Positions 5,512 to 32,000 of a stretch of DNA of 32,000 nucleotides are shown here, one piece after another. The DNA is from Microcystis aeruginosa NIES-843 (GTDB taxonomy: Bacteria; Cyanobacteriota; Cyanobacteriia; Cyanobacteriales; Microcystaceae): positions 3,600,001 to 3,632,000 of the forward strand of contig NC_010296.1 in assembly GCF_000010625.1 (NCBI RefSeq), given 5' to 3'. A model generated the notes under the pieces. It made no database searches. It had not been told where the DNA came from and saw only the letters and a program-made list of their open reading frames with translations. The translations under genes were made by a program, and so were the position numbers. How positions within the stretch are numbered: the first letter of the stretch is position 1; every line of letters begins with the position of its first letter.

Positions 5512-5610
5512 GCATCGCACTTTAACCCACAGCTTCAATAAATGTGCATGGTGCGTTCCCCAAAATCGATTGGTGGAGCAGTGGGAGTCACATTAGGGAA
5601 CGCACCCTAC
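5512..5610. repeat. Hairpin repeat family, copy R1
   Basis: The 11-12 bp arms GGTGCGTTCCCC (5550-5561) and GGGAACGCACC (5596-5606) flank a ~34-nt loop. The same ~100-bp unit recurs at 24428/26466, 29281, 30199 and 30947. The terminal CCCTAC (reverse complement GTAGGG) supplies the TAG stop of the 5607..6713 gene. Confidence 0.85.
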
Positions 5611-6713
5611 AGCTGCCACACGGTCAACGGGTTCCACAATCGGAGGCGTCGCGTGCGCTTGCCATCTTCGACCACCGCTTCCCAGTTGCGGTAGGGCTGA
5701 GGTGGCTGGTACTTCCCCTGCCCTGGGTCGTACTGCCCCTCAACACCGGTAAGCGCCGACATCGAATTGGTCGCGGCGGCCTTGACACCATCGTCGGTGG
5801 CGCGAGAGCCCCCGAAGAAGTCGTTGCCCGGCCAAGAGACATGGTCCCAGGCGACCAAACTGTACAGGGCGCATCCAGAAAAATCGTCGCCCCGCTCCGC
5901 ATAGGCGACCGGGTGGCACAGCTGCGACTTCTCCTCGTTCCCCGGCAGCCGCAGCGGACGGACTATGAACGATATGCCTTCAATCTCGACGCGGGCGTTT
6001 TCGCACTCGCTGTACGGGTCGAAGTAGACGGCCTTCAGGTTTGGAAGAGAGGTGCCGTGCTCGGTCAAGAGTCTCTGCAAAGCCATCTGCAAATGCGCGC
6101 CAAGTTGACCCCGGAACGGACCGGCGAACTGCCCGCAGCCGAGGCCCGGTAAGGTCACGAAGGCGGATTGCGGCTTAGCTGCTCGGCAGTTTATATACCG
6201 GAAGACTGGCAAGAGTCTGCGCCGGTACAGGTTGTAGTACCCCTCTGTAGACAACCGCCCATCCGCCGCAGTCGCCTCGCTCCAATCGGCCGGGGTATTC
6301 CCCCAGCCATTACACAGGAGAGCGCCTGGAGTAAATACCAACATCGCCGAAAAGGGAGGTGCGTGCGGCGTCGGGGAACGATGGTTGCCGTCGTCGAAGA
6401 CGGTCACCGGTACAGCGATCGAGATATCGCCCAGTAGACCGAGTTCGGTCAGGTTCCAATCGGAGCCGTCTCCGGACACGGCCATCTCGGCGAAGATCTG
6501 AGGTCGCTTGGTGTCGAGCAACTTGCCGAGAAGCTCCAGTTCTGTCAGTGCTTGAAGGTTCGAGTCCTGGAGGCGCTCACGCAGACAGTCTCCAGGTTGT
6601 GTCCGGCTGGCTCGCAACCTTTCCAGGTAGTCCGAAGCACGGGCCACGGTCTCCCCTGGAATGATGATGGAGTACTTGGGGGCGATAGCGTCGCCCGAAG
6701 TGTGGATGGTCAT
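5607..6713 (-). CDS. GC-rich orphan protein of unknown function; weak PARG/macrodomain-like G-C-G-x-F loop
   Basis: The long ORF is visibly far more GC-rich than its surroundings and has GC-rich third positions. As a result it spawns five overlapping spurious ORFs on both strands. I place the start at the ATG at 6713 (MTIHTSG...), 8 nt after AGGAAG, where composition switches to AT-rich. The motif LPGLGCGQFAGP resembles the diphosphate-binding loop of PARG-type macrodomains. Confidence 0.7.
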   Translation of the reverse strand: MTIHTSGDAIAPKYSIIIPGETVARASDYLERLRASRTQPGDCLRERLQDSNLQALTELELLGKLLDTKRPQIFAEMAVSGDGSDWNLTELGLLGDISIAVPVTVFDDGNHRSPTPHAPPFSAMLVFTPGALLCNGWGNTPADWSEATAADGRLSTEGYYNLYRRRLLPVFRYINCRAAKPQSAFVTLPGLGCGQFAGPFRGQLGAHLQMALQRLLTEHGTSLPNLKAVYFDPYSECENARVEIEGISFIVRPLRLPGNEEKSQLCHPVAYAERGDDFSGCALYSLVAWDHVSWPGNDFFGGSRATDDGVKAAATNSMSALTGVEGQYDPGQGKYQPPQPYRNWEAVVEDGKRTRRLRLWNPLTVWQL

Positions 6714-6741
6714 CAACGTCGCTTCCTTCGCCGAACTAAAT

Positions 6742-6810
6742 ATTATACGGAAACTTTCTCTATAACACTCTCCGGGGTAACGATATGGGTCAACCTTCTG
6801 TATAACACTC
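6742..6810 (-). promoter_or_regulatory. Putative promoter region of the GC-rich gene: TATAAT box plus two TATAACACTC direct repeats
   Basis: On the minus strand, TATAAT (6747-6742) lies ~28 nt upstream of the AGGAAG RBS. The 10-mer TATAACACTC occurs at 6761-6770 and 6801-6810, 40 bp apart. Confidence 0.3.
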
Positions 6811-7291
6811 CATTTAGGCGCAATCGCAAGAAGTCTTCCGTATATCACCCCCAAAAGCTTGTTAGTCAGATTAGCATATTGCCAAAAACCTTGTTTAACT
6901 AAATTTCTGACAACAAGCTAAAATAACAGGAGTTTTCCGGGATTCTAGAAAGGTAGAAACTAAGCACATCAAAGCTTTTAGCTTAACCAATTAGGTTTTA
7001 GATTCGGCCTTTGTTATCAGATGTGGGTTTTCAGTTCACCGATTACCGATGACTGTTTACTGATCACCGAACAAATCCCACCTCTCCGAACATTTGTCAA
7101 GACTGGGAGCGAAAAAGCCGCGTTTGTTCACACAGCTTAATTAAGAGTTGTAACTTTTAATGAACAGGAAGAGAGTCTAGGGCTGAGAGCTTGCTATAGT
7201 GAATCCTAGCCGTTTTTTCACGGCTCGTCATTATCATCTCAGAGCCTTTACTCGTCTCAATCATCATCCCAGAGTAAAATCAATAATCCCT

Positions 7292-8532: not shown

Positions 8533-9072
8533 ATGGCTATTTATAGTGAATTACCCACAGGACAACGTCTCTATCTCGATAATCAAGGGCCGCAGACGAT
8601 TGTAACCCTCGCTAGTGGTGCTGTGGGACAACAACAGCAGTCTAGCAGTAGTTTTGCCACGGGAGTTTGGACAAAAGAACCCCAAATAGAGATAATTCCC
8701 CAAGGGGCAATTATTGAAATTATCACTGAAACCGGACCCCACAGAATCCAAATTCAAGGGAGCAGTATCGGTTTTTCCTCTCCTCATACCTCTGGAGTTT
8801 CTCAGTCCTCTCAATCGACCACTGCTACCAGTTTCTCCTCCTCACCGATGCAACCGATGCAACCGATGCAACCGATGCAACCGATGCAACCGATGAAAAT
8901 GGGTAATATGTCGATGAATTTTGCCCCCATGGAAATGGAGATGGGAGAGATGAAAATGAGTATGGGAGACGCAAAAACCGTCAGCAAAGTCCGATTTTGT
9001 CGTCAATGCGGGGCAAAAGTAGCGGCAACCGATCGCTTTTGTAGTAGCTGTGGTCATCAGTTACAGCAATAG
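8533..9072 (+). CDS. Zinc-ribbon domain protein with Ser/Thr-rich and Met-rich low-complexity region
   Basis: The C-terminus is CRQCG-x11-CSSCG, a zinc ribbon. It is preceded by (PMQ)5 and a Met-rich segment. Confidence 0.6.
   Translation: MAIYSELPTGQRLYLDNQGPQTIVTLASGAVGQQQQSSSSFATGVWTKEPQIEIIPQGAIIEIITETGPHRIQIQGSSIGFSSPHTSGVSQSSQSTTATSFSSSPMQPMQPMQPMQPMQPMKMGNMSMNFAPMEMEMGEMKMSMGDAKTVSKVRFCRQCGAKVAATDRFCSSCGHQLQQ
8845..8895 (+). repeat. Perfect 9-bp tandem repeat (CCGATGCAA) x5.7 inside the CDS
   Basis: Five exact copies plus a partial copy, encoding PMQPMQPMQPMQPMQPM. Confidence 0.95.
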
Positions 9073-17777: not shown

Positions 17778-19198
17778 ATAAGCTGTCCCCCTCCAGAGAC
17801 TTGAGTAAAAATACTTAGCTGGTGAAGGTTGTCTCGGTGGCCGCTAGGGGGGTCTTGAGACCCCTAATTATGAAAAAATAGGAATTGTTGGAAAACTTAG
17901 GCGAGTGGACTGTTCGACCATGGATCAATCGGTAATGATTTGGTAGTAGTGGCGTAGCCCTCTTGCTTACCTGGTATGAATTGTGTAAAATATTTATTAA
18001 TAAAAATAATGGTTCTTCCGAACTTACCATGTAAAATCAACTAGCAAAATGCCAATTTAATAAACATCTAAGACGGGAGCAAGTCAAAGCTGAAGAACAA
18101 ATAAACTACTTGACAAAAGCATCAATTGGGTATGGGATAGAGAAAAGAGTGGGGAAAAGACAAAAATGACTCCAGAGCAACAACAAGAACTTAACCAACA
18201 TATTCAAGCGATAGCCAAGATTCTTCATCAGGAAGCTGAGGCTGAAAAAATCCAAACTTTAGAGGGAATAGAGACGACAATAAGAGAACAGACCTGAAAA
18301 TATATAACTCCGAAACTAGGATTTTTTTTGGTCACAAAAACGACAGGAACTCAAGCCGGGAGACCGAGAAAAATAAAAAGCATCATCGGAGAATTATGCC
18401 TGACAGAAAAACAAGCAATCCGTTTAAATATTCCTCGTAATAACCAAATTAGTCCTTACTTAGAACGCTGTTGTTTAAGAGCTAGTGCCAATGTTTCTTA
18501 TGAAAATGCCGCCAGAGATCTTCAATTTTATACAGGGATGAAGGTCTCGGCTAGTGGGACTTAAACAAATTTCAAGCCCAAACAAAGCCTAAACTGGCTT
18601 TGTAAGCGGCAAACACATCCCGATTCTCGGTCAGCCACTCAAAGAAACGGAAAGACATCGCTGTCCGAAAAGCTTCCAAGGCTTCCACAAAAGTGTTTAA
18701 AGGTCGATTCGCCCACTGCCTTTGCAATCCCCCAGTTAACTGATGCCACAGGATAAATGTATAGGCACAAAACACCAAGATAAAATGACGAAGTAAGCTT
18801 CGTTTATCCCTGACTTGATATTCCCTTAACCCTAACCATCCTTTGGCTTCTCGGTAGAATACTTCCACCCAATTTCTTTCGGTGTAAGTCCTCACTATCC
18901 ACGACGCTGTTACTGTATCTGCCTCAACTACATTGGTGATGAAATAGTCCACCTCTGTGGCTTTTTCCATTGAACTTGCATTCATGACGATCGCCAAGTT
19001 CCTTTCTCCTTCTAGTTGAGATATTTTCGCTCTGAATACCGCTACCCAAACCGTTTTTTCTTTATCTAGATTTAGGGTGATTTTCTCCCAATCCTTTTCT
19101 GATAGGCTTTTTGCTAGTTGCTCAAGCTGGATTGTTTCTTCCACACCCCCTTCTTTTTCAATAATTACTTTTCGATTTTTTGCCAATCCTCCTAAGTA

Positions 19199-19412
19199 GG
19201 GCTGGCTGAATAAATCTAAAAAGTTTGTTGGATAAGGTTTTTAGGCTTTTTTGACCTCAAAAAGTGCCTAGCCTTGGAGTGATCGGGGGTAAAATTCCTG
19301 GACTTTTTCCCTGAAAATTAGGTAATTGACCACCTGAAAATGAGTAAAACCCCACACCCCACACCCCACACCCCACACCCTGCCACCACCGAAAAACTTT
19401 TTCAGCAGACCC
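19199..19412 (-). mobile_element. G-rich-core MITE, copy A (214 bp)
   Basis: The ends are GGGTCTGCTGAAAAAG... and ...TTCAGCCAGCCC (imperfect IRs). The 6-bp TSD is TACTTA (plus strand TAAGTA at 19193-19198 and 19413-19418). The core is (GGGGTGT)4. Confidence 0.85.
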
Positions 19413-20788
19413 TAAGTATTTTAGCTTTCTTTCTTCCAGGGCTTTGAGAAAATTTGTGTTGTTGCCATAACCAGCATCTATTAAGACGATTTTCGGTCGA
19501 TAGCCTCTGGTTAAGCTCCGGTCAATTAAATCTATCGCTATCTCTGGTTTCTTCTTAAATTCTTTGTCTTCTTTCCCCTCGGCTAAGGAACTAGCCGGTT
19601 GATAAATTTCCCTGTCTAGGGGTACACTTTTTTTGCCGTCGTAGAGATGGGTAGTGACGGCGACTATTCCGTTGTCTGTCTTGCCAATTTCTCCTAGGTA
19701 CTGCCTGCCAACTCCGGCGGTCAGATTGCCACTTTTTCGATGTCCTGAGTCATCGACAATCAGGGAAAATCCTCGGGGGATTTGCGTCTGGCGGCATTGG
19801 TTCATCACTTGCAACCGACATTCATTCACCTGACGGTCTGACCAAGGAGATTCGGTCAAAAAGTGATGTAATCGGTTATAAACTACTCCGACGGCATTAT
19901 TGGCCATTTGAGTGAGGTTTTTCCTCTCACTTTCCCCTAATAATCCTCCTAAATAGGGCTGGCTGAATAAATCTAAAAACCTTGTTGGATAAGACTTTTG
20001 GACTTTTTTCCCCTCAAAAAGTACCAGATATGGGAGTGATCAGGGGTAAATTCAGGGACTTTTTCCCTGAAAATTAGGTAATTGACCCCCTCAAAATCGG
20101 TCAAACCCCACACCCGTTACAGTAGAGCAGGAAGTCGCCTTCCCACCCCCTGCTTCAAAACCGGACTTACGACTTTCGCCGTATCCGGCTCCTGAGTAAC
20201 TAGGCTACTGTCATTAGTAGAATAATAATGGGAATTATTATTTCCTTGTCTATTCAACCCTCTTGGCTGTATCCCCACCAGACAAGATTGTTGGTTTTAG
20301 GGCGTATATGACCGTTGATTGTTGCTTAGACTTCCTAGTTACCCGTCCTTTGTCAGCATATCTTTGATATTACTCAAAGCCTTGGCTTTTAAGGACATCC
20401 TCTCCCTCTATTGACTTGCGGATGGTTTCCTACTGCCCCGAACGGGCAGAGTCAATCAGGGTTACTTCGTTCCCTATAACCATTGGTTGAACCCTTAGGA
20501 TGATACTGTCCACAACAGAGTAACGGGAATGCCTTACTGATAGTGGTATGAGCTATCAGCCCCAACTCTGTTAACTTTTGTTTCGAGCCTGTCAGCCTTT
20601 TGGCTCGTGGGTGTTGACGATGGTTAATTCGTATCTTCGCCCCAGGGCTATCCATAGGTTCTGGCTCAACGGGTTTCTGATTTAGGCTATCAGATACCGC
20701 TTTTTTTTCCTCGCTCACTACCTCAGATGTACCAAGTCTAAAGCAGCAGGAAATGCCGTCACTCTAGGCATCTAGAGGACAGGACTAA

Positions 20789-21930: not shown

Positions 21931-23192
21931 TAAGGTTATTACTAACCCGCACCTGTAGGGTTATAAAGTTATCAAGGTACTACATTTACCAAGCGGCTAA
22001 TCCTCTAAACGTCTTACTGTCTAGTTTCTAGCCAACGAATCGCACCACACCCCACACCCTACACCCTGCCCCTAGGAAAAACTTTTTCAGCAGACCCTAA
22101 ATATTGTCTGAAGCCGTTTTTTTGCGCTTCGTTTTTGAAGCAATTGTCAAACCGCCGACACCATCGGTCAAAGCATGGGGGCATTGCGGCTGGGGTTGTC
22201 TCTTTCATCGCTGATCTTTCAACGTAAAGTGCTTACTCTTTAACGATTATACTCGATTTGATCTTTATTTGGCGTTTAAGTCCCACTAGGACTCAACAAC
22301 GATTAGTCCATCGCCACCAATTTGCCGAAGAAGAATCAGGAAACCCCGTTCAAGAAATTAGTCTAGATGGAGGAAAAGTGCGCTTAAGAACCGAAACTAA
22401 GGGAGAGGCTTGTATCTGGAAAGATTATCAAGCAATCTGTGTTGATACTTTCCTAAGAAAAGCTTGGTTTGGAGAGAATGAATCGTTAATATATTGGGTT
22501 AATCAACAACCTTTATCTGACCCCCTTACCTGTTTGGGAGACGGACATCCCGGTATTGGGAAAATTGTGAAAAACTGGGATTGTCCAGGAGAAAAAAGAG
22601 AAATACTTGACTGGTTTCATTTGGTAGAAAATCTTCATAAAGTCGGCGGTTCAGTGAAGAGATTGAAAAAAGCAGCAAGTTTATTATGGCAGGGCAAAAT
22701 TGAGGAAACAATAGCATTAATCTCTCCTTTAAAAAACGAACGAGCTGAAAATTTCTGTCGTTATTTAGAGATTCATCGTCATCGAATTGTTAATTATAAT
22801 TACTATCAACAAGAAGAGATTTGCTCTATTGCTTCGGGAGCCGTTGAATCCACGGTTAAACAGATTGACCGACGACTGAAAATTTCTGGAGCCCAGTGGA
22901 ATGAAGAAAATATCCCTCAAGTGCTTAAACACCGCTGTGCTTACCTAAATAACAGTCTTTAGCTATTGAATAGTATTTATGTTCTGACAAAACTGACTTG
23001 CTCCCTGTATCCTCCCCCATATCACGCCCAAAAGCGTGTTAGCCAGATTAGCTTACTGCAAAGAGCCTCCTTTAAGGAGACTTATCACAGAAGCCTTCTG
23101 GGAATGTAGCAAAGATTCTTGTATCTGGCTGCACTTTGTCACAAAATTTCACTATTATTTCGGGTAAGGTATCGTAAATCCCTTGATAGATA

Positions 23193-24191
23193 GGGTTTAC
23201 TGAAAAAGTTTGTTGGTGGGGCTAGGGTGTGGGGTGTGGTGCGATTCGTTGGCTAGAAACTAGACAGTAAGACGTTTAGAGGATTAGCCGCTTGGTAAAT
23301 GTAGTACCTTGATAACTTTATAACCCTACAGGTGCGGGTTAGTAATAACCTTAGTCCTGTCCTCTAGATGCCTAGAGTGACGGCATTTCCTGCTGCTTTA
23401 GACTTGGTACATCTGAGGTAGTGAGCGAGGAAAAAAAAGCGGTATCTGATAGCCTAAATCAGAAACCCGTTGAGCCAGAACCTATGGATAGCCCTGGGGC
23501 GAAGATACGAATTAACCATCGTCAACACCCACGAGCCAAAAGGCTGACAGGCTCGAAACAAAAGTTAACAGAGTTGGGGCTGATAGCTCATACCACTATC
23601 AGTAAGGCATTCCCGTTACTCTGTTGTGGACAGTATCATCCTAAGGGTTCAACCAATGGTTATAGGGAACGAAGTAACCCTGATTGACTCTGCCCGTTCG
23701 GGGCAGTAGGAAACCATCCGCAAGTCAATAGAGGGAGAGGATGTCCTTAAAAGCCAAGGCTTTGAGTAATATCAAAGATATGCTGACAAAGGACGGGTAA
23801 CTAGGAAGTCTAAGCAACAATCAACGGTCATATACGCCCTAAAACCAACAATCTTGTCTGGTGGGGATACAGCCAAGAGGGTTGAATAGACAAGGAAATA
23901 ATAATTCCCATTATTATTCTACTAATGACAGTAGCCTAGTTACTCAGGAGCCGGATACGGCGAAAGTCGTAAGTCCGGTTTTGAAGCAGGGGGTGGGAAG
24001 GCGACTTCCTGCTCTACTGTAACGGGTGTGGGGTGTAGGGTTTTACCCATTTTCAGGCGGTCAATTACCTAATTTTCAGGGAAAAAGTCCCTGAATTTTC
24101 CTCCCAATCACTCCAATCGCTGGTACTTTTTGATTTCAAAAAAGTCTAAAAATATTATCCAACAAGGTTTTTAGATTTATTCAGCAACCCC
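23193..24191 (+). mobile_element. G-rich-core MITE, copy C, carrying an intact group II intron
   Basis: The ends are GGGTTTACTGAAAAAG... and ...TTCAGCAACCCC. The 6-bp TSD TAGATA lies at 23187-23192 and 24192-24197. Confidence 0.85.
23239..24023 (+). mobile_element. ORF-less group II intron (self-splicing ribozyme retroelement), copy 2, 785 nt
   Basis: The 5' end is GUGCG. Domain V is GAGCCGGAUACGGCGAAAGUCGUAAGUCCGGUUU (23948-23981), with the AGC triad, a GAAA tetraloop and a 2-nt bulge. Domain VI has a bulged A (24017) 7 nt from the 3' end, which terminates ...AC. An AT-rich stub hairpin sits where the IEP ORF would be. Confidence 0.8.
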
Positions 24192-24427
24192 TAGATAGGC
24201 AAGCGTTTCAATCGGGACTAACTTCTGGGAAACCCGCTATATATCTCCTGCAAAAATCAAAAACCTTCCGTTAGGTTAGGAGAATCCGAGACAGGAGAAG
24301 AAAAAAGACATGAAAAATTTAGTACAAAAGCTCTACTCTCCCTGCTCTGGCGCTCCCTAGCTTACCAGAGGTCGATTATTCACTAAATGGTATCAAAAAA
24401 ATCGGGTCTAAAACCTCGTCTTTACTC

Positions 24428-24477
24428 ATTTTATTGTAACGGGATTTGGGATCACAACTTCAATAAATGTGCATGGT
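24428..24477. repeat. Hairpin repeat family, copy R2, left part (split by IS1380)
   Basis: The sequence ttattgtaacgggatttgggatcacaacttcaataaatgtgcATGGT matches the left half of copy R5. Confidence 0.8.
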
Positions 24478-26465
24478 CCCGCATTTCTCACAAACTGAAT
24501 TAAGAACCTAATTTGGAGGTTAAAAGTTGGTGTTTTTCAAAAATAAGAGAAACCCGCCTAGTTATCAAGGAATAATCTGACTAAACTAATCAAAAAATTC
24601 CTGAATTACTGGAAAAATTCCGTCAATTAGGGAAAATGTTCACGACAAAGTTAGCTGAATTTATAAGCAGCCATTTTTAAGACTATTTAATGATCTTTGA
24701 AAACTCTTCAACTTATCCAGTTCCCGCTATCGCTTGAATTCTAGAGTAAGCTATCGCTAAAATATCTTGATAGGGACAAGAACTGGCAATTGCGATTAAA
24801 ATTCTTCTGACACTAACAGTAATTCTAGCTCCTAATTTAAGGAAATTAAGGCGAATTGTTCCCACTGTCGCTTTGGCAAAAGAAGTTTTAGCCAAACAAT
24901 TTTGACGAAAAGCTTGCATTAAAACATAAGCCATTGATGACAACCAAAGTCTTAATTGATTACTCTCAAATGTCTGTGTCGAATTCCGGTCAGCAAATAA
25001 GTCTAATTGTTGCTCTTTAATTCGATTTGACCTCTCACCTCTGGGGCAATATTTTTCAGTGTAAAGTTTAGATGGGGGAATCTTTGATGCAGGTAAAGAA
25101 GTCACAACGTGGCGAATTTTTACGCCCTCACTACCAGGACAAACTTTTGTCACCACTCTTCTTGAACGGCTCCAGGATTTTTGGGTTTGATAACATAGGG
25201 AACGATACCAAGTCGATTCTGGTACCAATTTCGCCAATTCTCCTAACTCTTCATCGGGAGAAAATAACGTCTCCATTAATTCAGTAACTGGCTGAAGTCT
25301 TTGCTCGTAATCTGCCTTAGCTTTCTCAATTACATCGGTCGCTCGTAATTTTAATTGACTATTCGTTGCCATTGCTAAAACATAATCAACTCCTGCTTGA
25401 CTTTCGCAAAATTTCATGATATCTTCACGGGAATAGGCACTATCTCCTCGTACTAATATCTGCGTATCTGACCATTTTTCTCGAATTATACCGATTATTC
25501 GCTGCAATTCTTCTAATGCTCCCCCAGCAGTATCTACATGAGAAGACCGGAGTTTAGCTACTAATAAATGATGCTCACAGAAAATATACAAAGGAGCATA
25601 ACACACTCCTTTATAATAAGTATTGAAAAACGCTCCCTCTTGATTTCCATGCACTTGGTCATCGGTGACATCCATGTCTAAAATAATTGGTTTCGGTGGC
25701 TTTTTGTAGGATTCTAGAAAGATGTCCACAAAAGCTTTTTCAATTTCTTTGGGGTTAGGCTCGATTTTATGGTAACGACTGTTCTCTTGATTGATGACTG
25801 TTTCCGGACAATATTCTAGTCGATTAATTGTACTTTTTCCCGCTAAATTTGCTTGGGCTGAGTCAATAAAATTTAGTTTTTTCAATGCTATTGCTAAAGC
25901 TGGAGCATGACGTAATTTATCATGATCATTGACATCCTCATATCCCAAAACTATCCCATAAACTCTTTGTGCGAGTAGTTCATGAACTGAATAATCTAGA
26001 TAGGATGAATTTCGATAATCTCGAAAACATTCGGCAAACCGAGCCGTTATTTTTAGCTTTTGGTCTAACTCTGCCATCAAAATAATTCCTGCATCTGAGG
26101 TGATTTTTCCTCCCTCAAAATTAGCGATTACTTGTCTTCCATTGAGGTTTCCAAAATTTAATTGATTGAGTCGAGACTGGTCTGAACTAGGAGTCATAAA
26201 CTTGACATACTTTAAATAGTTTTAATGATTAAATTATAGCAAGCTTTTGACTTCATTCTCTACTTAAAATTGAGACTTTATCAACTAATTAACCTAAAAA
26301 TACTCATTTTAAATTTGTTCTTTTTTCAAGGTCTAATTGATGATGAGCTTAAGTTGAATCCTAACAACACACTGTCGTTTTTGCTACAAGGCGATCACCC
26401 AGTCAAAACCCAGATTTTGTAAGGCTTCGGGGGTTGGTGATCGTACTTTTTGTGAGAAATGCGGG
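24478..26465 (-). mobile_element. IS1380-family insertion sequence (1988 bp), inserted into hairpin repeat R2
   Basis: The 17-bp perfect IRs are CCCGCATTTCTCACAAA (24478-24494) and its complement (26449-26465). The 5-bp TSD ATGGT lies at 24473-24477 and 26466-26470. Excision restores the repeat consensus gtgcATGGTgcgttcccc. Confidence 0.9.
24713..26197 (-). CDS. IS1380-family DDE transposase
   Basis: The 494-aa ORF has an N-terminal FEGGKITSDAG motif, LGYEDVNDHD, and a C-terminal YCPRGE..NRIKEQQLDLFADR motif, all typical of IS1380. Confidence 0.85.
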   Translation of the reverse strand: MTPSSDQSRLNQLNFGNLNGRQVIANFEGGKITSDAGIILMAELDQKLKITARFAECFRDYRNSSYLDYSVHELLAQRVYGIVLGYEDVNDHDKLRHAPALAIALKKLNFIDSAQANLAGKSTINRLEYCPETVINQENSRYHKIEPNPKEIEKAFVDIFLESYKKPPKPIILDMDVTDDQVHGNQEGAFFNTYYKGVCYAPLYIFCEHHLLVAKLRSSHVDTAGGALEELQRIIGIIREKWSDTQILVRGDSAYSREDIMKFCESQAGVDYVLAMATNSQLKLRATDVIEKAKADYEQRLQPVTELMETLFSPDEELGELAKLVPESTWYRSLCYQTQKSWSRSRRVVTKVCPGSEGVKIRHVVTSLPASKIPPSKLYTEKYCPRGERSNRIKEQQLDLFADRNSTQTFESNQLRLWLSSMAYVLMQAFRQNCLAKTSFAKATVGTIRLNFLKLGARITVSVRRILIAIASSCPYQDILAIAYSRIQAIAGTG

Positions 26466-26546
26466 ATGGTGCGTTCCCCCAAAATCGATCGCTGGAGCAG
26501 TAGGACTTGCATTAGGGAACGCACCCTACAGCGATAGCGATCGCAC
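26466..26546. repeat. Hairpin repeat family, copy R2, right part
   Basis: The sequence is ATGGTgcgttccccc...attagggaacgcaccctac, followed by agcgatagcgatcgcac. Confidence 0.8.
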
Positions 26547-26729: not shown

Positions 26730-27038
26730 TTACTCGGTTACAGTTTGTCTGCGAGTTGTTAACCATCGATTCAGGGAGCGTGAACTCTCGCTACTGCGCC
26801 GACCAGCTAATAGTCCTTCGATACCAATATGCTCATCTAGATCGAGCCATTCGATAGCACATCCATCCGCTAAGAGTTGCCAATTTTGACGCTCGGCGGG
26901 GGAGGCGTGCAGTAAACGAGGGTACCATGTTAGCGGAACGGTGATGCTGCGACCGTCGGCTAGGTCGATTATTAATTTATCGTCGGTTAGGGTCACTTGA
27001 TGGGCAATTGGCTCGGTTTCAAGGGTCAAAGTAATCAT
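26730..27038 (-). CDS. DUF2442-family protein (putative TA-module component)
   Basis: The 102-aa ORF carries the LADGRSITVPLTWYPRL and IEWLDLDEHI motifs. It is a paralog of 31051..31365. Confidence 0.8.
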   Translation of the reverse strand: MITLTLETEPIAHQVTLTDDKLIIDLADGRSITVPLTWYPRLLHASPAERQNWQLLADGCAIEWLDLDEHIGIEGLLAGRRSSESSRSLNRWLTTRRQTVTE

Positions 27039-27135
27039 GCCATGGGGTTAGGATTGCGGGTTGATGTTCTGTTATTAGTTTAGCAATCTGGTTTAATTCA
27101 TGTTCTTTGAATCCTCGGTTTTTCTCTAAGGTAAT

Positions 27136-28555
27136 GTAGGGCTGTTTCATTCTCCCATCAGAATATCAAAAGTAAAAGCGATCACTGTCAGGTAAAATGA
27201 TAAGTGACCGCCAACTTTTCAAACATATGTTGAGCTTAATAGAAAAACTAAAACAAGTCAAGGACTTTCGGAAAGATAAAGGAAAAAGACACCCTTTATG
27301 GATAGTATTAATAGTAATAATACTGGGAACAATGCTAGGATACTCAGGTTATAGAGAGCTAGGAGAGTTCGCTAAAAATAATCGGCACAGGCTCAGTCAA
27401 GAATTTAACATAATTCCAGAAAGAGTCCCATCCTATTCAACAATTAGAAGGGTAATGATGGGAGTTGAATGGCAGATTTTGTTAAAAATGTTTAATGAAT
27501 GGGCATTACAAGAATATGGACAAAGAAGTGATATAAATTGGCTAGGCATAGATGGAAAAAGTCTCAAAAATACCCTAAAGAATCCTAACAATGAACAACA
27601 AAATTTTATTATGTTTGTCTCATTGTTTATTCAAGAAAGTGGATGAGTATTACACTTAAAAAGAATCGAAAACAAAAAAGGGTCTGAAATCGACGAAGAT
27701 CAAGCTATAATTCAGGATTGCTCTCTCCAAAATAAAGTTTTTACTGGCGATGCTTTACACTGTCAGAAAAAAACAATCAGCTTAATAGCCAAGAGTAAAA
27801 ATGACTATGTTATCACCGTTAAAGGAAATCAGAAAAATCTTTATAAGCGAATACAAGACCTGAGTAATTCCTCAAAGCCAGAAAGTTGCTTTCTTGAACA
27901 AAATAATAGTCATGGTCGAAAAATATCCAGAAAAATAGAAGTTTTTAAAGTGAGGAAAAATGAAAGACAAGGGTTTGAAAATCTGCGCCGAATTATTAAA
28001 GTAGAAAGAAGGGGTAGTCGCGGGGATAAAACTTATGAAGAAACAGCTTACTATATCAGTAGCCTAACCGAATCCGCCCAAGTATTTGCTAAAATTATTC
28101 GAGGACATTGGAAAATAGAAAATCAGTTACATTGGGTAAAAGATGTAATTTTTGAGGAAGATAAAAGCGAGATAAGTGATTTTCAAGCGGCCAGCAATTG
28201 GTCAATTCTCACAACTATAGGATTGAATCTTTTCAGAGGTTTGGGTTTTCTCTCAATAACAGAGGGACAGAGGTGGTTAGCTGAACGTTGGGAAAAACTG
28301 ATAGTTTTATCGACGTAAGAAGCAGAAAAATTAGCTAAATTAACAGGATGTACTCTCAGAAAATTTGAAGAGAGATAGGCTTTTAGTGGCTTGGGAACAA
28401 GCTTTATCAATTTATTCATAATCAATATTGGCAGAGGATTAAAGATTAGTTATTGTCACTAACTTTTTTGATTAGAAAAAGATAAACTTGAGAATTTTCA
28501 TTCAAATTTATTGACTCAAAATCCGCTGTACTTAATTTAAATGAATCAACCCTAC
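27136..28555 (+). mobile_element. ISAs1-family insertion sequence (1420 bp)
   Basis: The IRs are GTAGGGCTGTTTCATT (27136-27151) and AATGAATCAACCCTAC (28540-28555). The 9-bp TSD TAAGGTAAT lies at 27127-27135 and 28556-28564. Confidence 0.9.
27197..28318 (+). pseudogene. ISAs1-family (H-repeat-associated) transposase with a single in-frame TGA
   Basis: The ORFs 27197..27646 and 27950..28318 are in the same frame. The only stop between them is the TGA at 27644-27646. The C-terminal HWKIENQLHWVKDV motif is typical of ISAs1. Confidence 0.8.
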
Positions 28556-29102
28556 TAAGGTAATGGGATCAAGCCAATATTTAGCGAGTTTGCGATCGCG
28601 TTTGACATGGATATGGGCTGGCTCTTGTTGATCTGAACTGAAAAAGATAAAACTGTAAGGCCCAACTTGAAGGACGGTAGGCATGAGAAAAGCTATTTTA
28701 AAGGTATATTTAGCTCTATGCTCTTATTATCGAAAATTTGGGTTAAAACCCCGTCCTTTTAGGACGGCTTTAAGCTACAATGGAAAAAGCGATAACCAAG
28801 CTAAAAACTGAACCTTGACCACAGATAGTAGGGGGTTTTGTTCAGAAAAGAATTCAAATTCGGCCTTGAACGAGTAAAACTTTCTAGGAAATAAGGTTGA
28901 ACATTAGATTTTTTCGACTTGTTCAAAGTGGCCGTCCAGCATTCGGACACTCAAAACGGACGGGTCGAAAGAGTCAGACTTAAGCAATTAAGCGTTTTTC
29001 GCTATCTGCGTCAACCCCATTGACGCGACCACCCTAAAAAAGTGGCGTGGTGAGGAATCGCCGTCCGTTTTACGGCGGCGAGGATGTCAAATGTCAATTT
29101 CT

Positions 29103-29280
29103 CTAATTCACAATTACCCACAAAAAAAGAGACCCTTGCAGATATCCTGTTGTAATACCTTCAATTAAAGCTGAGTTTTTGTCTGCTTGGGCGCGGCGGC
29201 GCTTGAAGCCAACTCCCAGAGCGACGACAGCCCCCAGACCAACGAGGGCAGAGGGTTCCGGGGTTGTAGCGGGAGGAGCA
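29103..29280 (-). pseudogene. Remnant of a PEP-CTERM sorting-signal protein (C-terminal fragment only)
   Basis: The fragment reads TPEPSALVGLGAVVALGVGFKRRRAQ, that is, a PEP motif, a TM helix and an Arg cluster. The upstream part of the ORF is just a translated hairpin repeat (R3), so the body of the gene is missing. Confidence 0.4.
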
Positions 29281-29380
29281 GCATCGCATTTAAACCCACA
29301 GCTGCAATCAATGTGCATGGTGCGTTCCCCCAAAATCGATCGGTGGAGCAGTAGGAGTCACATTAGGGAACGCACCCTAC
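29281..29380. repeat. Hairpin repeat family, copy R3
   Basis: The arms lie at 29319-29331 and 29366-29376. The left flank gcatcgcatttaaacccacagctgcaat and right flank ccctacggctgc match subfamily R1. Confidence 0.85.
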
Positions 29381-29427
29381 GGCTGCGTTGTTAGACCGCG
29401 CCTCACCGAATCTCTTCTAGCACTGGC

Positions 29428-29796
29428 TCATAAGGCTTCAATCTTGACCTTACCGCCCTCAATGTTATCGACCTGCAACCGATATCTGTAAAGCAGCGCC
29501 ATTCCTAGTAGAGGCTCTGTTTCTGATTCTGCAATATCAATCTCTTGGTACTGCCCATCCCATATCACAGTCCCAGTGTACAGATCAAAATAAGTTTCAC
29601 TGCCATCACCCAGCGTGACAAAATCAGAACCACTCCAAGGTAAATTTAATGTAGCGATGATTGTAGAGGGCAAAGATAAAAATCCATTGAACCCGGTATC
29701 AATCACCGCGTCAACCGCTTGCAGTTGCCGATTTGAGTTTCCGACTACAATCCTTAGCGTGGCTTCACGCCGCAAATTTACAACACCTTCCATCAT
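29428..29796 (-). CDS. Retropepsin-like (clan AA) aspartic protease, single domain
   Basis: The ~122-aa ORF carries the catalytic motif VIDTGFNG. I place the start at the ATG at 29796, which overlaps the upstream gene's TGA (ATGA overlap), rather than at 29862. Confidence 0.75.
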   Translation of the reverse strand: MMEGVVNLRREATLRIVVGNSNRQLQAVDAVIDTGFNGFLSLPSTIIATLNLPWSGSDFVTLGDGSETYFDLYTGTVIWDGQYQEIDIAESETEPLLGMALLYRYRLQVDNIEGGKVKIEAL

Positions 29797-30068
29797 GGAT
29801 TTTTCTTCAAACTCCGTGCCCCGAAATGATAAACAGCGCGATGTCCGATACGAATGATCCAAGGTTGGGCATCGGGGTGACGTTCAAAGAGCCGATTAGT
29901 TGCAGGCACAACGTTTTCATCGACTTCAAACTCTCCAGTTTCAATGTCGATCGCTACAATCTTACCTTCATTACCGGCTTCGACTTGCTGCCGAATGCCA
30001 GATTCGTAGAGTTTTTGCCCTCGCTCGGCTAACTCATCTTTGGGATAACGCCGTTGACGAACTGCCAT
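29793..30068 (-). CDS. Small partner protein of the aspartic protease (DUF5678-like)
   Basis: The 91-aa ORF is translationally coupled to the protease by an ATGA overlap. The GKIVAIDIETGEFEVDEN segment resembles the small proteins that usually precede these proteases. Confidence 0.6.
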   Translation of the reverse strand: MAVRQRRYPKDELAERGQKLYESGIRQQVEAGNEGKIVAIDIETGEFEVDENVVPATNRLFERHPDAQPWIIRIGHRAVYHFGARSLKKNP

Positions 30069-30198
30069 CTGGTTGACCTCAACTCAGTATTTTGCCTTAA
30101 TTATACTTTGAGTTATTCTAACGAAGTGCTCCCGCTCTACTACTGATGAGCCGCCTCATCGCAAGCCCCCCAGTGGTGCACTTCAAATTTGAATCGGC

Positions 30199-30296
30199 GC
30201 TTCAATCAAGGTGCATGGTGCGTTCCCCAAAAATCGATCGCTGGAGCAGTAGGAGCCACATGAGGGAACGTACCCTACAAGATCGGCGATCTCACC
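30199..30296. repeat. Hairpin repeat family, copy R4
   Basis: The arms lie at 30217-30228 and 30264-30274, with one G-T mismatch. The right extension ctacaagatcggcgatctcac encodes the tail and stop of the DUF5615 pseudogene. Confidence 0.85.
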
Positions 30297-30646
30297 GTTA
30301 AGTCTCTCATTCTAATTTTGTCTTCTTCAATAACTGTAAAGTGTCCATACCAGTCATCCCGCAATGAGATAACCTTGGCAACTTTCTCAGCGACTACAGA
30401 TGCAGAAGGTACTCTTATTCTAAACAAAATAATACCAACACTGGCCGGCAACCTTGAACGAAAGGCGAGTTATCCAAAATCTTGATCAAATGTCAAGAGA
30501 ATACGATTTTCTGCTTGGGCGCGACTTAAAACTTCACGGTCCGAGATTCCGGGGGATTCCACCCTAATCCACAGGACATCATGGCCATTTTGTCGTAGGG
30601 CTTCAACCGCATCAAGGGGGAAATTTTCGTTCGCTAGAAAACGCAT
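30275..30646 (-). pseudogene. DUF5615 / PIN-like (Mut7-C-type) putative toxin with an in-frame TAA
   Basis: The protein reads MRFLANENFPLDAVEALRQNGHDVLWI...TFDQDFG*LAFR.... The family consensus at this point is DFGELAF, so the TAA at 30472-30470 is consistent with a single-base change, GAA to TAA. Confidence 0.75.
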
Positions 30647-30649
30647 CAG

Positions 30650-30880
30650 TTAAGCAGGAATAGCATAGACTTTCTCAGATTTGAGCATTACACTAGCATA
30701 GCTAAGACAAGCTTGAATATCTTCTACTGTAATACCTGGGTAGTTTCGCAGAATTTCATCAATACTCCAACCTTGGGCGAGAAGATCGATGATAAATTCA
30801 ACCGCAATCCTTGTTCCTTTAATGATAGGTTTTCCCACCAAAATATCGGGATTTAGTGTAATTCGAGTTTCCCAGTCCAT
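30650..30880 (-). CDS. DUF433-family protein (putative antitoxin partner of DUF5615)
   Basis: The sequence is MDWETRITLNPDILVGKPIIKGTRIAVEFIIDLLAQGWSIDEILRNYPGITVEDIQACLSYA. I place the start at the ATG at 30880; the longer listed ORF runs into hairpin repeat R5. Confidence 0.8.
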   Translation of the reverse strand: MDWETRITLNPDILVGKPIIKGTRIAVEFIIDLLAQGWSIDEILRNYPGITVEDIQACLSYASVMLKSEKVYAIPA

Positions 30881-30946
30881 AGCTACATCATTGAAAGTGT
30901 TTTCAAAAAGGTAAAGGCTGCGTGGGACGCACCCTACAATATCTCG

Positions 30947-31072
30947 TTTTATTATAACAGGATTTGGTATCACAACTTCAATCAATGTGCATGGTGCGTT
31001 CCCCAAAAATCGATCGGTGGAGCAGTGGGAGCCACATTAGGGAACGCACCCTACGAGATCGGCGATCGCACT
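30947..31072. repeat. Hairpin repeat family, copy R5, plus a partial right-end copy at 30924-30937
   Basis: The arms lie at 30993-31004 and 31040-31050. The right extension ctacgagatcggcgatcgcac encodes the tail (RVRSPIS) and stop of the DUF2442 gene. Confidence 0.85.
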
Positions 31073-31365
31073 CGATTATTTAACCAACGCTTCAAGGATT
31101 TTTGACTTTCCCCTGATGGTTGGCCAAGAATCAAGTTTTTAGTGCTAATGTCTTCATCTAGTTGATTCCAATGGATTCCACTGCCACCAGCGATCAAGCG
31201 ATAATCATTGCGCTCCTCAATTGAGCCATGCAGGAGCCGAGGATACCATGCCAGGGGAACAGATATAGTGCGCCCATCAGACAAATCTACACTGAGTGTG
31301 TCATCTGTGATGGCCAATTGCTGAATAGCCAATGTTTCAAATACTTCATTCGTTAAAAAAGTCAT
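31051..31365 (-). CDS. DUF2442-family protein (second copy)
   Basis: The 104-aa ORF carries the LSDGRTISVPLAWYPRL and IHWNQLDEDI motifs. Confidence 0.8.
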   Translation of the reverse strand: MTFLTNEVFETLAIQQLAITDDTLSVDLSDGRTISVPLAWYPRLLHGSIEERNDYRLIAGGSGIHWNQLDEDISTKNLILGQPSGESQKSLKRWLNNRVRSPIS

Positions 31366-31583
31366 TCCAGCCTGCTAGTAATTGTTCTTGGTTTTCTTGA
31401 ACAAGTTTTTGAATGCGGTTAATTTCGGTGCGGTTAAATCCTTGGTTACTCTGAAGACGAAGCGGCTGAAGCCAGAATTTAGCGATCTCTCGATCTCGTT
31501 CAACATGGATGTGAGGTGGCTCCGAAGCGATCGCCTGCGTAGCAAAAGAATCGATATGGGCCAACGGTCAACAGCGTGGGCAT
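31346..31583 (-). pseudogene. DUF4160-family gene with a +1 frameshift
   Basis: The ATG at 31583 gives MPTLLTVGPYRFFCYAGDR, after which the frame breaks. The remainder, SEPPHIHVERDREIAKFWL...FFNE*, is in the frame of the listed ORF 31346..31564. The span is 238 nt (3n+1), with the extra base near 31525-31526 in GATCGCTTCGG. Confidence 0.75.
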
Positions 31584-31675
31584 TCAAAAGTTTTGCTCTA
31601 AATATCTCAAACATAGCTGAATGCCTCGCTGACTGTCAATCTGTGAATATGCTCATGTAGGCCAAAGGCTATTTA

Positions 31676-31885
31676 GGGTCTGCTGAAAAAGTTTTTCGTG
31701 GGGACAGGGTGTGGGAACAGGGTGTGGGGTGTGGGTTTTTACCGATTCTCATCTGGTCAATTACCTAATTTTCAGAGAAAAAGTACCTGAATTTTCCCCG
31801 ATCTCTCCCAGAACTGGTACTTTTTGATTTCCAAAAGGTCTAAAAGTCTTATCCAACAAAGTTTTTAGATTTATTCAGCAAACCC
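31676..31885 (+). mobile_element. G-rich-core MITE, copy D (210 bp)
   Basis: The ends are GGGTCTGCTGAAAAAG... and ...TTCAGCAAACCC. The 6-bp TSD TATTTA lies at 31670-31675 and 31886-31891. Confidence 0.85.
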
Positions 31886-32000
31886 TATTTAAGGTTAAGA
31901 ACAATACAAGATTAGCGTTCGCAGTTTAGTTCCGAAGGTGTTGGATTTCTTTTCGTCAACCCAAGCTACAAGATCAGCGATCTGCTACGCAGTGCCTTCG

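Follow-up and report, generated by a model that had tools for sequence, protein, structure and literature searches.

Short repeats delimit exchangeable modules and serve as recombination points in the neisserial intergenic mosaic elements (dRS3/RS arrays) and in the pdif modules of Acinetobacter plasmids, where the sites are about 20-28 bp long and are bound by known recombinases (phage/IS110-like or XerC/D). In integron arrays and clusters of attC sites lacking integron-integrases (CALINs), such as those built on the Vibrio VCRs, a hairpin site stands at the end of every cassette, the cassettes are co-oriented, measure about 0.6-1.1 kb and are in many cases toxin-antitoxin (TA) pairs, the repeats are near-identical within one genus, the cassettes stand in a strain-specific order at a fixed site, and the site often overlaps the end of an open reading frame (ORF), all of which also applies to the element described here. 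Repetitive extragenic palindromes (REPs) tagged with GTAG are known from cyanobacteria (PMC3733652), and the supplement of PMC6006769 lists REPs of 58-71 nt flanking REP-associated tyrosine transposases (RAYTs) in Anabaena and Arthrospira, as well as GTAGGGTGCGTCGCGACGCACC flanking a RAYT in a strain coded PbraA01. In addition, direct 'border repeats' fence a ParE/ParD-like TA pair in Microcystis aeruginosa PCC 7806 (Klemencic et al. 2021, PMC7935541). The subject of the present analysis is a hairpin repeat with five copies (R1-R5) in a stretch of 32,000 nt from M. aeruginosa NIES-843 (NC_010296.1, positions 3,600,001 to 3,632,000), hereafter the window, in which an initial annotation had seen a layout like that of an integron or CALIN. 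On balance, we regard this repeat as probably the Microcystis form of a cyanobacteria-wide family of REP-like hairpins, the copies of which would be spread by an enzyme acting in trans while homology between them shuffles the intervening cassettes. REP-like elements are already known as a kind; the arrays and the cassette shuffling are without a precedent that we could find. Literature searches by sequence, or for Microcystis together with attC or integrons, returned nothing relevant, and the literature searched holds no account of this hairpin, nor of arrays in which it runs strictly head-to-tail, nor of cassettes being shuffled across strains.

The repeat is a genuine, non-random hairpin element. 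All five copies are present in a single orientation at the positions first reported for them, and alignment bears out the common stem of 11-12 bp (GGTGCGTTCCC/GGGAACGCACC) and the loop of about 34 nt, with loops of 33-35 nt that are roughly 85-95% alike among the five. The 12-mer GGTGCGTTCCCC and its complement match the window nine times at no more than one mismatch, against 0.12 matches expected from shuffles, and the invariant core of the copy alignment runs from CTTCAAT...GTGCATGGTGCGTTCCCC through the loop of 33-35 nt to GGGAACGCACCCTAC. The two pieces reported for R2 are indeed one copy, which is interrupted by an insertion sequence (IS) that ends in inverted repeats of 17 bp (CCCGCATTTCTCACAAA) and has duplicated 5 bp of its target (ATGGT); the counterpart of R2 in the near-identical genome AP019314.1 is uninterrupted (locus L128, position 16221). 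The proposed division into two flank subfamilies likewise held, as both the conserved tails and the heads differ. Two lesser assignments had to be replaced: a 'partial copy' at 30924-30937 is instead a separate mini-hairpin of the GTAG family (GTAGGGTGCGTCCCACGCA, at about 30920-30945), and a 'right-end fragment' at 31966-31985 is an upstream head module (...GATCTTGTAG) without a hairpin. The copies and their relatives in the window are the following.

5512 to 5610, minus strand: R1, with arms at 5550-5561 and 5595-5606, the complement of GTAG at 5607-5610 and a type-1 tail at 5512-5549.
24428 to 24477, minus strand: distal part of R2, a type-2 tail with the extended -10-like sequence TGTTACAAT, ending in ATGGT, which is one copy of the IS target duplication.
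24478 to 26465, minus strand: IS with a DDE_Tnp_1_4 transposase (24713-26197), inserted in R2 and foreign to the repeat.
26466 to 26546, minus strand: proximal part of R2, with arms at 26468-26479 and 26514-26525, GTAGG and the HIP1-containing head GTGCGATCGCTATCGCT.
29281 to 29380, minus strand: R3, with arms at 29319-29330 and 29365-29376 and a type-1 tail.
30199 to 30296, minus strand: R4, with its left arm at 30217-30228, a type-3 tail and the head GTGAGATCGCCGATCTT; the right arm is GGGAACGTACC, with one change that gives G.T on the plus strand (A.C on the other).
30947 to 31072, minus strand: R5, with arms at 30993-31004 and 31039-31050, a type-2 tail with TGTTATAAT and the head GTGCGATCGCCGATCTC.
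30920 to 30945, minus strand: mini-hairpin GTAGGGTGCGTCCCACGCA, which belongs to the same GTAG family and lies in the 5' leader of the DUF433 cassette.
31940 to 31990, minus strand: head-only module CGAAGGCACTGCGTAGCAGATCGCTGATCTTGTAG, without a hairpin.

Read on the gene-sense strand, which for the repeats is the minus strand of the window, the element consists of an optional HIP1-containing head (AGTGCGATCGCCGATCTT) and GTAG, followed by GGTGCGTTCCC as the first stem arm, some 35 nt of loop, GGGAACGCACC as the return arm and the tail ATGCACATTGATTGMAG. Together the arms form an uninterrupted, perfect duplex, 11-12 bp long and free of bulges, each pair of which is intact in 86-91 of 91 distinct copies. 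Across the Microcystis copies, stem positions vary by 0-8% compared with 20-50% at many loop columns, and covariation within the stem is near nil, amounting to one compensatory A-T pair and a few G.T pairs. A stem that is near-invariant while loop columns vary argues for a constraint on the sequence itself, beyond structure. The tail variants ATGCAC, ATGCCC and ATGCAG occur mixed inside genomes, whereas in a listing of the flanks they looked more array-specific, and thus give no clean evidence for genome-wide concerted evolution. Two further readings of the repeat were discarded: a candidate GUGG/CCAC pairing inside the loop showed no covariation among loop variants (judged by eye), and a protein-coding reading was ruled out by 1-nt indels between copies in C/A runs.

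The hairpin lies in the 3' untranslated end of a co-oriented gene or overlaps its stop codon, and is densest in arrays of small cassettes, mostly TA, at conserved hotspots of the chromosome. The claim that every copy in the window sits 3' of a minus-strand gene was confirmed, at distances of 0-200 nt, and for R1, R4 and R5 the TAG within the GTAGG of the repeat is itself the stop codon of the upstream gene. Among the upstream ORFs across loci, 13 of 80 stop at the TAG of GTAGG, while most others end no more than 110 nt before the repeat. The genes so followed include those of TA systems as well as ordinary genes, such as those for lipoxygenase, methyltransferase, TetR, VWA, NACHT and cold-shock proteins.

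The repeat also occurs outside Microcystis. An exact-stem scan of one genome per species returned at least 120 loci, from which copy counts are to be read as lower bounds and not as genome-wide totals; among the matches listed are Microcystis (many), Oscillatoria, Lyngbya, Limnospira, Calothrix, Phormidium, Leptolyngbya, Pseudanabaenales and others, and a single complete Microcystis chromosome holds at least nine loci. The 15-mer GTAGGGTGCGTTCCC is found in many cyanobacterial genera, with identical stems and loops that are unrelated between genera though conserved inside Microcystis. GTAGG precedes the stem in 136 of 163 exact-stem matches (116 times on one side and 20 times on both), occupying one flank in Microcystis and both flanks, in a symmetric arrangement that resembles REP doublets forming hairpins (REPINs), in Oscillatoria. 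The sequence GTAGGGTGCG has 228 occurrences in 0.9 Mb of loci, compared with about 1.7 expected, and in 196 of these CGCACC follows within 100 nt. This frame encloses not only the long-loop hairpin but also short-loop hairpins, some of them followed by T-runs, and other hairpins, and its recurrence in several hairpin classes marks the tag and the stem foot as the constant part of the family. Outside Microcystis the core hairpin is mostly single at each locus, with occasional short tandems and no cassette arrays.

These traits place the repeat close to the GTAG-tagged REPs and REPINs. In both, GTAG stands directly 5' of a GC-rich hairpin of which the tag and foot are kept while the distal stem and loop vary, copies are numerous, extragenic and near the 3' ends of genes, and symmetric forms exist, here in Oscillatoria. 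The total hairpin length of 57-62 nt, with a loop that is long for a REP, is similar to the 58-71 nt of the RAYT-flanking REPs of Anabaena and Arthrospira. A REP- or MITE-like element (a MITE being a miniature inverted-repeat transposable element) favouring gene 3' ends had been among the options named at the outset, and it is the one that fits best, because GTAG lies directly 5' of the stem, tag and foot are kept across genera with variable loops, and copies also stand behind ordinary single genes.

Copies were delimited by BLAST against an asymmetric consensus, which gave 99 copies in 55 loci, and all 41 adjacent pairs less than 4 kb apart are co-oriented. The spacers between neighbouring copies are mostly about 640-1100 bp, together with seven short ones of 19-83 nt that hold no ORF. 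The longest ORF reads toward the repeat in 21 of 24 distinct inter-repeat segments, and of the remaining three at least one, the segment between R2 and R3 in the window, holds a nested IS. The cassette families include VapBC/PIN, DUF433/DUF5615, DUF4160/DUF2442, UPF0175/DUF3368, Phd, PemK, ParE-like and Asp-protease-like pairs. The order and content of the cassettes depend on the strain, with boundaries inside the repeat, as the following arrays (cassettes labelled c) illustrate.

Window: c0, c1, c9.
Locus L057: c0, c1, c2, c7.
Locus L011: c3, c8, c4, c1, c5.
Locus L034: c4, c1, c10, c5, c0.

At least six genomes have the main array next to one and the same RecQ-like helicase gene. At a second hotspot, which adjoins a rubrerythrin gene, the first cassette differs between the window, L028 and L031 (MavL, a VWA gene and others), and the junction immediately after GTTTCTACCTTTC is readable in the window and L028. 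A comparison of strains had been proposed in the initial annotation; given the co-orientation and the strain-variable cassettes, the copies in the loci compared are neither scattered at random with respect to gene ends and orientation nor lacking in cassette-like gain and loss. A linkage analysis based on few independent events suggests that hairpin and left-loop variants move along with the cassette upstream of them, and that junctions are concentrated some 10-22 nt 3' of the stem, as in the hybrid tail of L011 (...TTGCAGCTGTG joined to ATACC). The last ~15 nt of the RecQ-like gene and the following 350 bp are duplicated inside the arrays of several strains (L128 1614-1963; L011 6452-6801; L034 5585-5933; window 24377-24207 and 23191-23013), which points to general, unequal homologous exchange rather than a site-specific reaction.

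The mechanism that we favour builds on these observations. The GTAG tag and the stem foot would be recognised by an HUH/Y1 enzyme that acts on single-strand DNA and is of the RAYT kind, or by another sequence-specific hairpin-binding protein, and this protein, acting in trans, would spread and maintain the copies. The roughly 75-130 nt of conserved sequence behind each cassette could then act as portable homology, through which cassettes may be swapped, inserted, deleted and duplicated by general recombination, including that with incoming DNA. The transcribed GC-rich stem probably shields or insulates, in addition, the 3' end of the upstream transcript. Microcystis genomes are extremely plastic and hold very many TA and defence genes, and how this accessory content is organized and exchanged is poorly understood; the element supplies a boundary, defined by sequence, for the cassettes that can be exchanged at conserved hotspots. 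Should the hairpin be no more than portable homology, REP-like repeats can let a region of the chromosome shuffle cassettes in the manner of an integron but with no integrase, while a dedicated enzyme acting on the hairpin would amount to a new kind of cassette-capture system. In practical terms, the 15-mer GTAGGGTGCGTTCCC can serve as a marker for finding arrays, for typing bloom strains and for designing REP/RAYT experiments in cyanobacteria.

Several observations weigh against a REP-like element mobilized by a RAYT-like enzyme. Classical REPs are shorter and mostly clustered in alternating orientation, whereas the Microcystis clusters are strictly head-to-tail with whole gene cassettes between the copies, and no inverted (head-to-head or tail-to-tail) dimer clusters were seen among the Microcystis copies, those of Oscillatoria being symmetric. 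The loop of 33-35 nt, conserved within Microcystis, is a further departure from GTAG-tagged REPs and REPINs, as is the lack of any RAYT flanked by the repeat in the loci examined. We searched 4450 ORFs from 120 loci with phmmer and with a hidden Markov model built from published RAYT/TIRYT sequences, and the only matches were an ordinary IS200 TnpA in L064 and, in locus L085, a Y1_Tnp gene that lies about 620 bp away from two copies; no other Y1 gene adjoins copies in the 120 loci, and no RAYT is linked to the repeat. The L085 gene is directly flanked by a related palindrome, GTAGGGGCGTTGCAT, but its family lacks a flanking core in all seven genome loci inspected (Microcystis, Lyngbya, Arthrospira; 0/7), and of 80 metagenome loci only 4 have a core-like site no more than 3 kb away, in no case adjacent. 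In this one Y1 family examined we did not find a single-copy RAYT with the same REPs on its flanks, the arrangement that defines a REPtron. The Microcystis RAYTs that have been listed (subclass 2.4) are flanked by other REP types (PMC6006769). Finally, the linkage of variants and the clustering of junctions are predicted by a fixed crossover point as well as by homologous exchange. The cognate enzyme may simply be absent from the sample.

One rival is a dedicated, non-integron cassette system, in which the hairpin would be the site of a site-specific or single-strand recombinase encoded elsewhere, and units made up of leader, genes, head and hairpin would be captured, excised and reordered at hotspots in a functional analogue of integrons. 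We consider this unlikely, though the evidence for it is varied: the 41 of 41 co-oriented neighbours, the integron-like cassette sizes, the same cassettes in different orders by strain, hairpin and left-loop variants tied to the upstream cassette with junctions just 3' of the stem, and hotspots that are conserved (the RecQ-like one in at least six genomes, the second with differing first cassettes). A foreign gene of 59.5% GC sits exactly between a native 5' module and the hairpin, and the stem is kept as a sequence, as would be expected of a protein-recognised site. Yet neither the window nor the 10 kb around the arrays yielded a recombinase, an identical hairpin stands behind ordinary single genes, copies outside Microcystis are mostly single and form no arrays, the duplicated recQ ends are typical of unequal homologous exchange, and the linkage analysis has few independent events behind it. 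We put forward only tentatively the idea of a second, integron-independent cassette system in Microcystis, and perhaps in other cyanobacteria. In such a system the single-strand GTAG hairpin would be recombined by an enzyme encoded elsewhere, plausibly an HUH/Y1 protein that has been domesticated, and promoter-bearing TA and defence cassettes would thereby be inserted, excised and reordered at fixed hotspots. An actual integron array, or CALIN, the attC sites of which have diverged, is another matter. The layout on which that proposal rested is real and general in related Microcystis loci, with co-oriented, promoter-bearing cassettes that each end in a hairpin, that are in many cases TA pairs as in chromosomal integrons, and that come and go between strains; the identity of the sites as attC is not supported. 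A search of both strands for RYYYAAC-N40-130-GTTRRRY found four pairs per strand in the window, none overlapping a repeat, and the loci examined show no R''/L''/L'/R' boxes and no IntI. The perfect stem has neither the extrahelical bases nor the unpaired central spacer of attC, its 5' arm carries GTT and its 3' arm AAC on either strand, which is the reverse of the attC order, and its sequence is nearly identical across genera, unlike that of attC sites, with singletons also behind ordinary genes. No gene for a tyrosine recombinase or intI-like protein was found in the 32-kb window, within 10 kb of the array in L128, or in L011 and L056. The integron reading is close to refuted, and we judge it extremely improbable.

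It is also conceivable, if quite improbable in our estimation, that the element acts primarily as RNA, a stem-loop in the 3' untranslated region that ends, stabilises or processes the cassette mRNA and insulates TA operons, its repetition in DNA being secondary. The invariable position right behind, or overlapping, the stop of a co-oriented gene would fit such a role, as would the stable GC-rich stem of 11-12 bp, the T-runs that follow short-loop relatives in the same genomes (e.g. GTAGGGTGCGTTAATGAAATGTAACGCACCTTATTTTTATT) and the promoter-like TGnTATAAT motifs that open the next cassette just downstream. The long-loop hairpin has no U-tract, however, and was not flagged in a terminator scan, on which grounds an intrinsic terminator of the long-loop form was rejected. 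Rfam has no family for the repeat at the gathering threshold and nothing relevant at E<=10 in 29200-31150, folding z-scores with flanks are mostly unremarkable (-2.4 to +0.4), and a stem conserved in sequence with almost no covariation, around loops wholly different between genera, likewise speaks against this reading. One copy with an inverted loop, in L049, fits a DNA inversion between the arms and not selection on RNA. A MITE dependent on a DDE transposase, with the arms of 11-15 bp as its terminal inverted repeats, would account for short inverted termini at high copy number in intergenic positions of an extremely IS-rich genome. We regard it as very unlikely, since no target-site duplications are seen in aligned flanks that are themselves conserved modules, strict co-orientation with genes is unexpected for MITEs, and the conserved part extends beyond the arms to a tail of 17 nt and the GTAG tag, which is asymmetric; in a search of the window and loci that was not systematic, we noticed no IS ending in these termini. 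The plasmid and phage collections contain no match to the repeat, and there is accordingly no evidence for a plasmid- or phage-borne element.

The remaining described systems share parts of this picture. The border repeats of PCC 7806 (PMC7935541) resemble the present locus in that co-oriented repeats, each about 150 bp long, enclose a TA module and contain an inverted repeat, GGGCGAAGCATTCGGA, similar to other GTAG-type cyanobacterial REPs (GTAGGGGCGAAGCATT...). They differ in their hairpin sequence and in being reported from a single locus, without arrays, cross-strain shuffling or a link to REPs. As for the dRS3/RS and pdif systems, no such enzyme or site architecture is seen here.

Some single copies and loci depart from the usual arrangement. 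In L049 (5434-5488) one Microcystis copy has its loop inverted between otherwise normal flanks, an expected outcome of recombination between both stem arms. A run of four hairpin units with no gene in between, at a start-to-start period of about 94 nt, occupies 2333-2701 of L002, and gene-less adjacent hairpin pairs with a start-to-start period of about 130 nt occur in L078 and L108. The Y1_Tnp protein of L085 (329-931; P0003 and relatives) has about 250 aa and the motifs SNHVHYL and YIHGNP. Its family is 70-95% identical across cyanobacterial orders, with one gene per locus and no flanking inverted repeats seen, and looks like a domesticated HUH enzyme.

The cassettes of the window, each with a repeat at its 3' end, are the following.

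5607 to 6854, minus strand: MavL-family macrodomain gene at the second hotspot, followed by R1.
26730 to 28684, minus strand: DUF2442 gene (26730-27038) and its upstream partner gene, followed by R2.
29428 to 30068, minus strand: cassette c1, two overlapping small ORFs of 91 aa and 144 aa, followed by R3.
30275 to 30883, minus strand: cassette c0, DUF433 and DUF5615 (PIN-like), followed by R4.
31051 to 31614, minus strand: small upstream ORF and DUF2442, followed by R5.

The gene before R1 had been called a GC-rich orphan. It is GC-rich, at 59.5% compared with 42.7% for the window, and on that account is probably foreign and recently acquired, but it is no orphan, as it belongs to the MavL family of macrodomain proteins (Pfam E = 5e-143). 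It is framed exactly by a native 5' module and by the hairpin, the TAG of which is its stop codon. The module, of about 180 bp (GCTAATCTGRCTAACA.GCTTTTGGG.GTGATATA..., window 6734-6913, minus strand), has direct GAGTGTTATA repeats and a TATAAT, recurs in at least 15 Microcystis loci, where it precedes many unrelated genes and often comes right after a hairpin tail, and looks like a portable 5' leader or promoter.

In the R2 cassette, the upstream partner of DUF2442 is interrupted at about 27137-28554 by an ISAs1-like IS (DDE_Tnp_1_assoc and DDE_Tnp_1, frameshifted) with a duplication of about 11 bp (CTAAGGTAATG); the same site is empty in L034. By analogy with L128 we take this partner to be DUF4160. 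A DUF2442/DUF4160 pair had likewise been assigned to the cassette before R5, where DUF2442 stands while the upstream ORF has no Pfam match here, its counterpart in L128 being DUF4160. The supposed protease pair before R3 is indeed a pair of ORFs, though neither has a Pfam match here, and the paralogues of this cassette give only a weak match to Asp_protease_2. In the tail of R3 begins, at an ATG, a 76-aa ORF (29103-29333) that ends in a PEP-CTERM signal (Pfam E = 5e-4, just under the curated cut-off). Its sequence also follows the hairpin in L034, L056, L022 and L057, and it may be the leftover of a gene cut by cassette insertion. That R4 follows DUF433 and DUF5615 proved correct; the toxin-like DUF5615 gene (30275-30646) contains a single nonsense codon at residue 59 (30470-30472 region), a position that is Glu in the intact copy of L056, and this toxin is therefore probably inactivated. 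The head of R4 encodes the end of DUF5615, RSPIL and stop (30275-30300), and the head of R5 encodes the end of DUF2442, RVRSPIS and stop (31051-31075). As these two proteins are unrelated and yet share a (V)RSPI(L/S) end, the head of the repeat supplies both the C-terminus and the stop codon.

The window as a whole is 95-100% identical to Microcystis loci and to AP019314.1, is very rich in ISs, and carries BamA, LpxC, ClpB and MTHFR genes. It contains an inverted repeat of 684 bp with arms at 20105-20788 and 23351-24034 that are 100% identical, each ending in a group II intron domain V/VI (Rfam RF00029, 55 bits; 20116-20193 on the minus strand and 23946-24023 on the plus strand), and these two domains are the sole Rfam matches in the window. 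A second inverted pair, of 136 nt, lies at 21931-22066 and 23218-23353, and an ORF for a reverse transcriptase is lacking. The window also holds a further family of dispersed repeats (GGGTGTGGGGTGT...ACCTAATTTTCAGGGAAAAAGT...), at 19185-19420, 19942-20115, 22045-22105, 23191-23220, 24024-24193 and 31674-31887, and the 3' end of the group II intron abuts a repeat of the GGGTGTGGGGTGT family at 24024 and 20115, as if this were the insertion target. Within the ORF of a zinc-ribbon protein (8533-9072), a 9-bp unit (ACCGATGCA) is repeated six times in tandem at 8835-8906.

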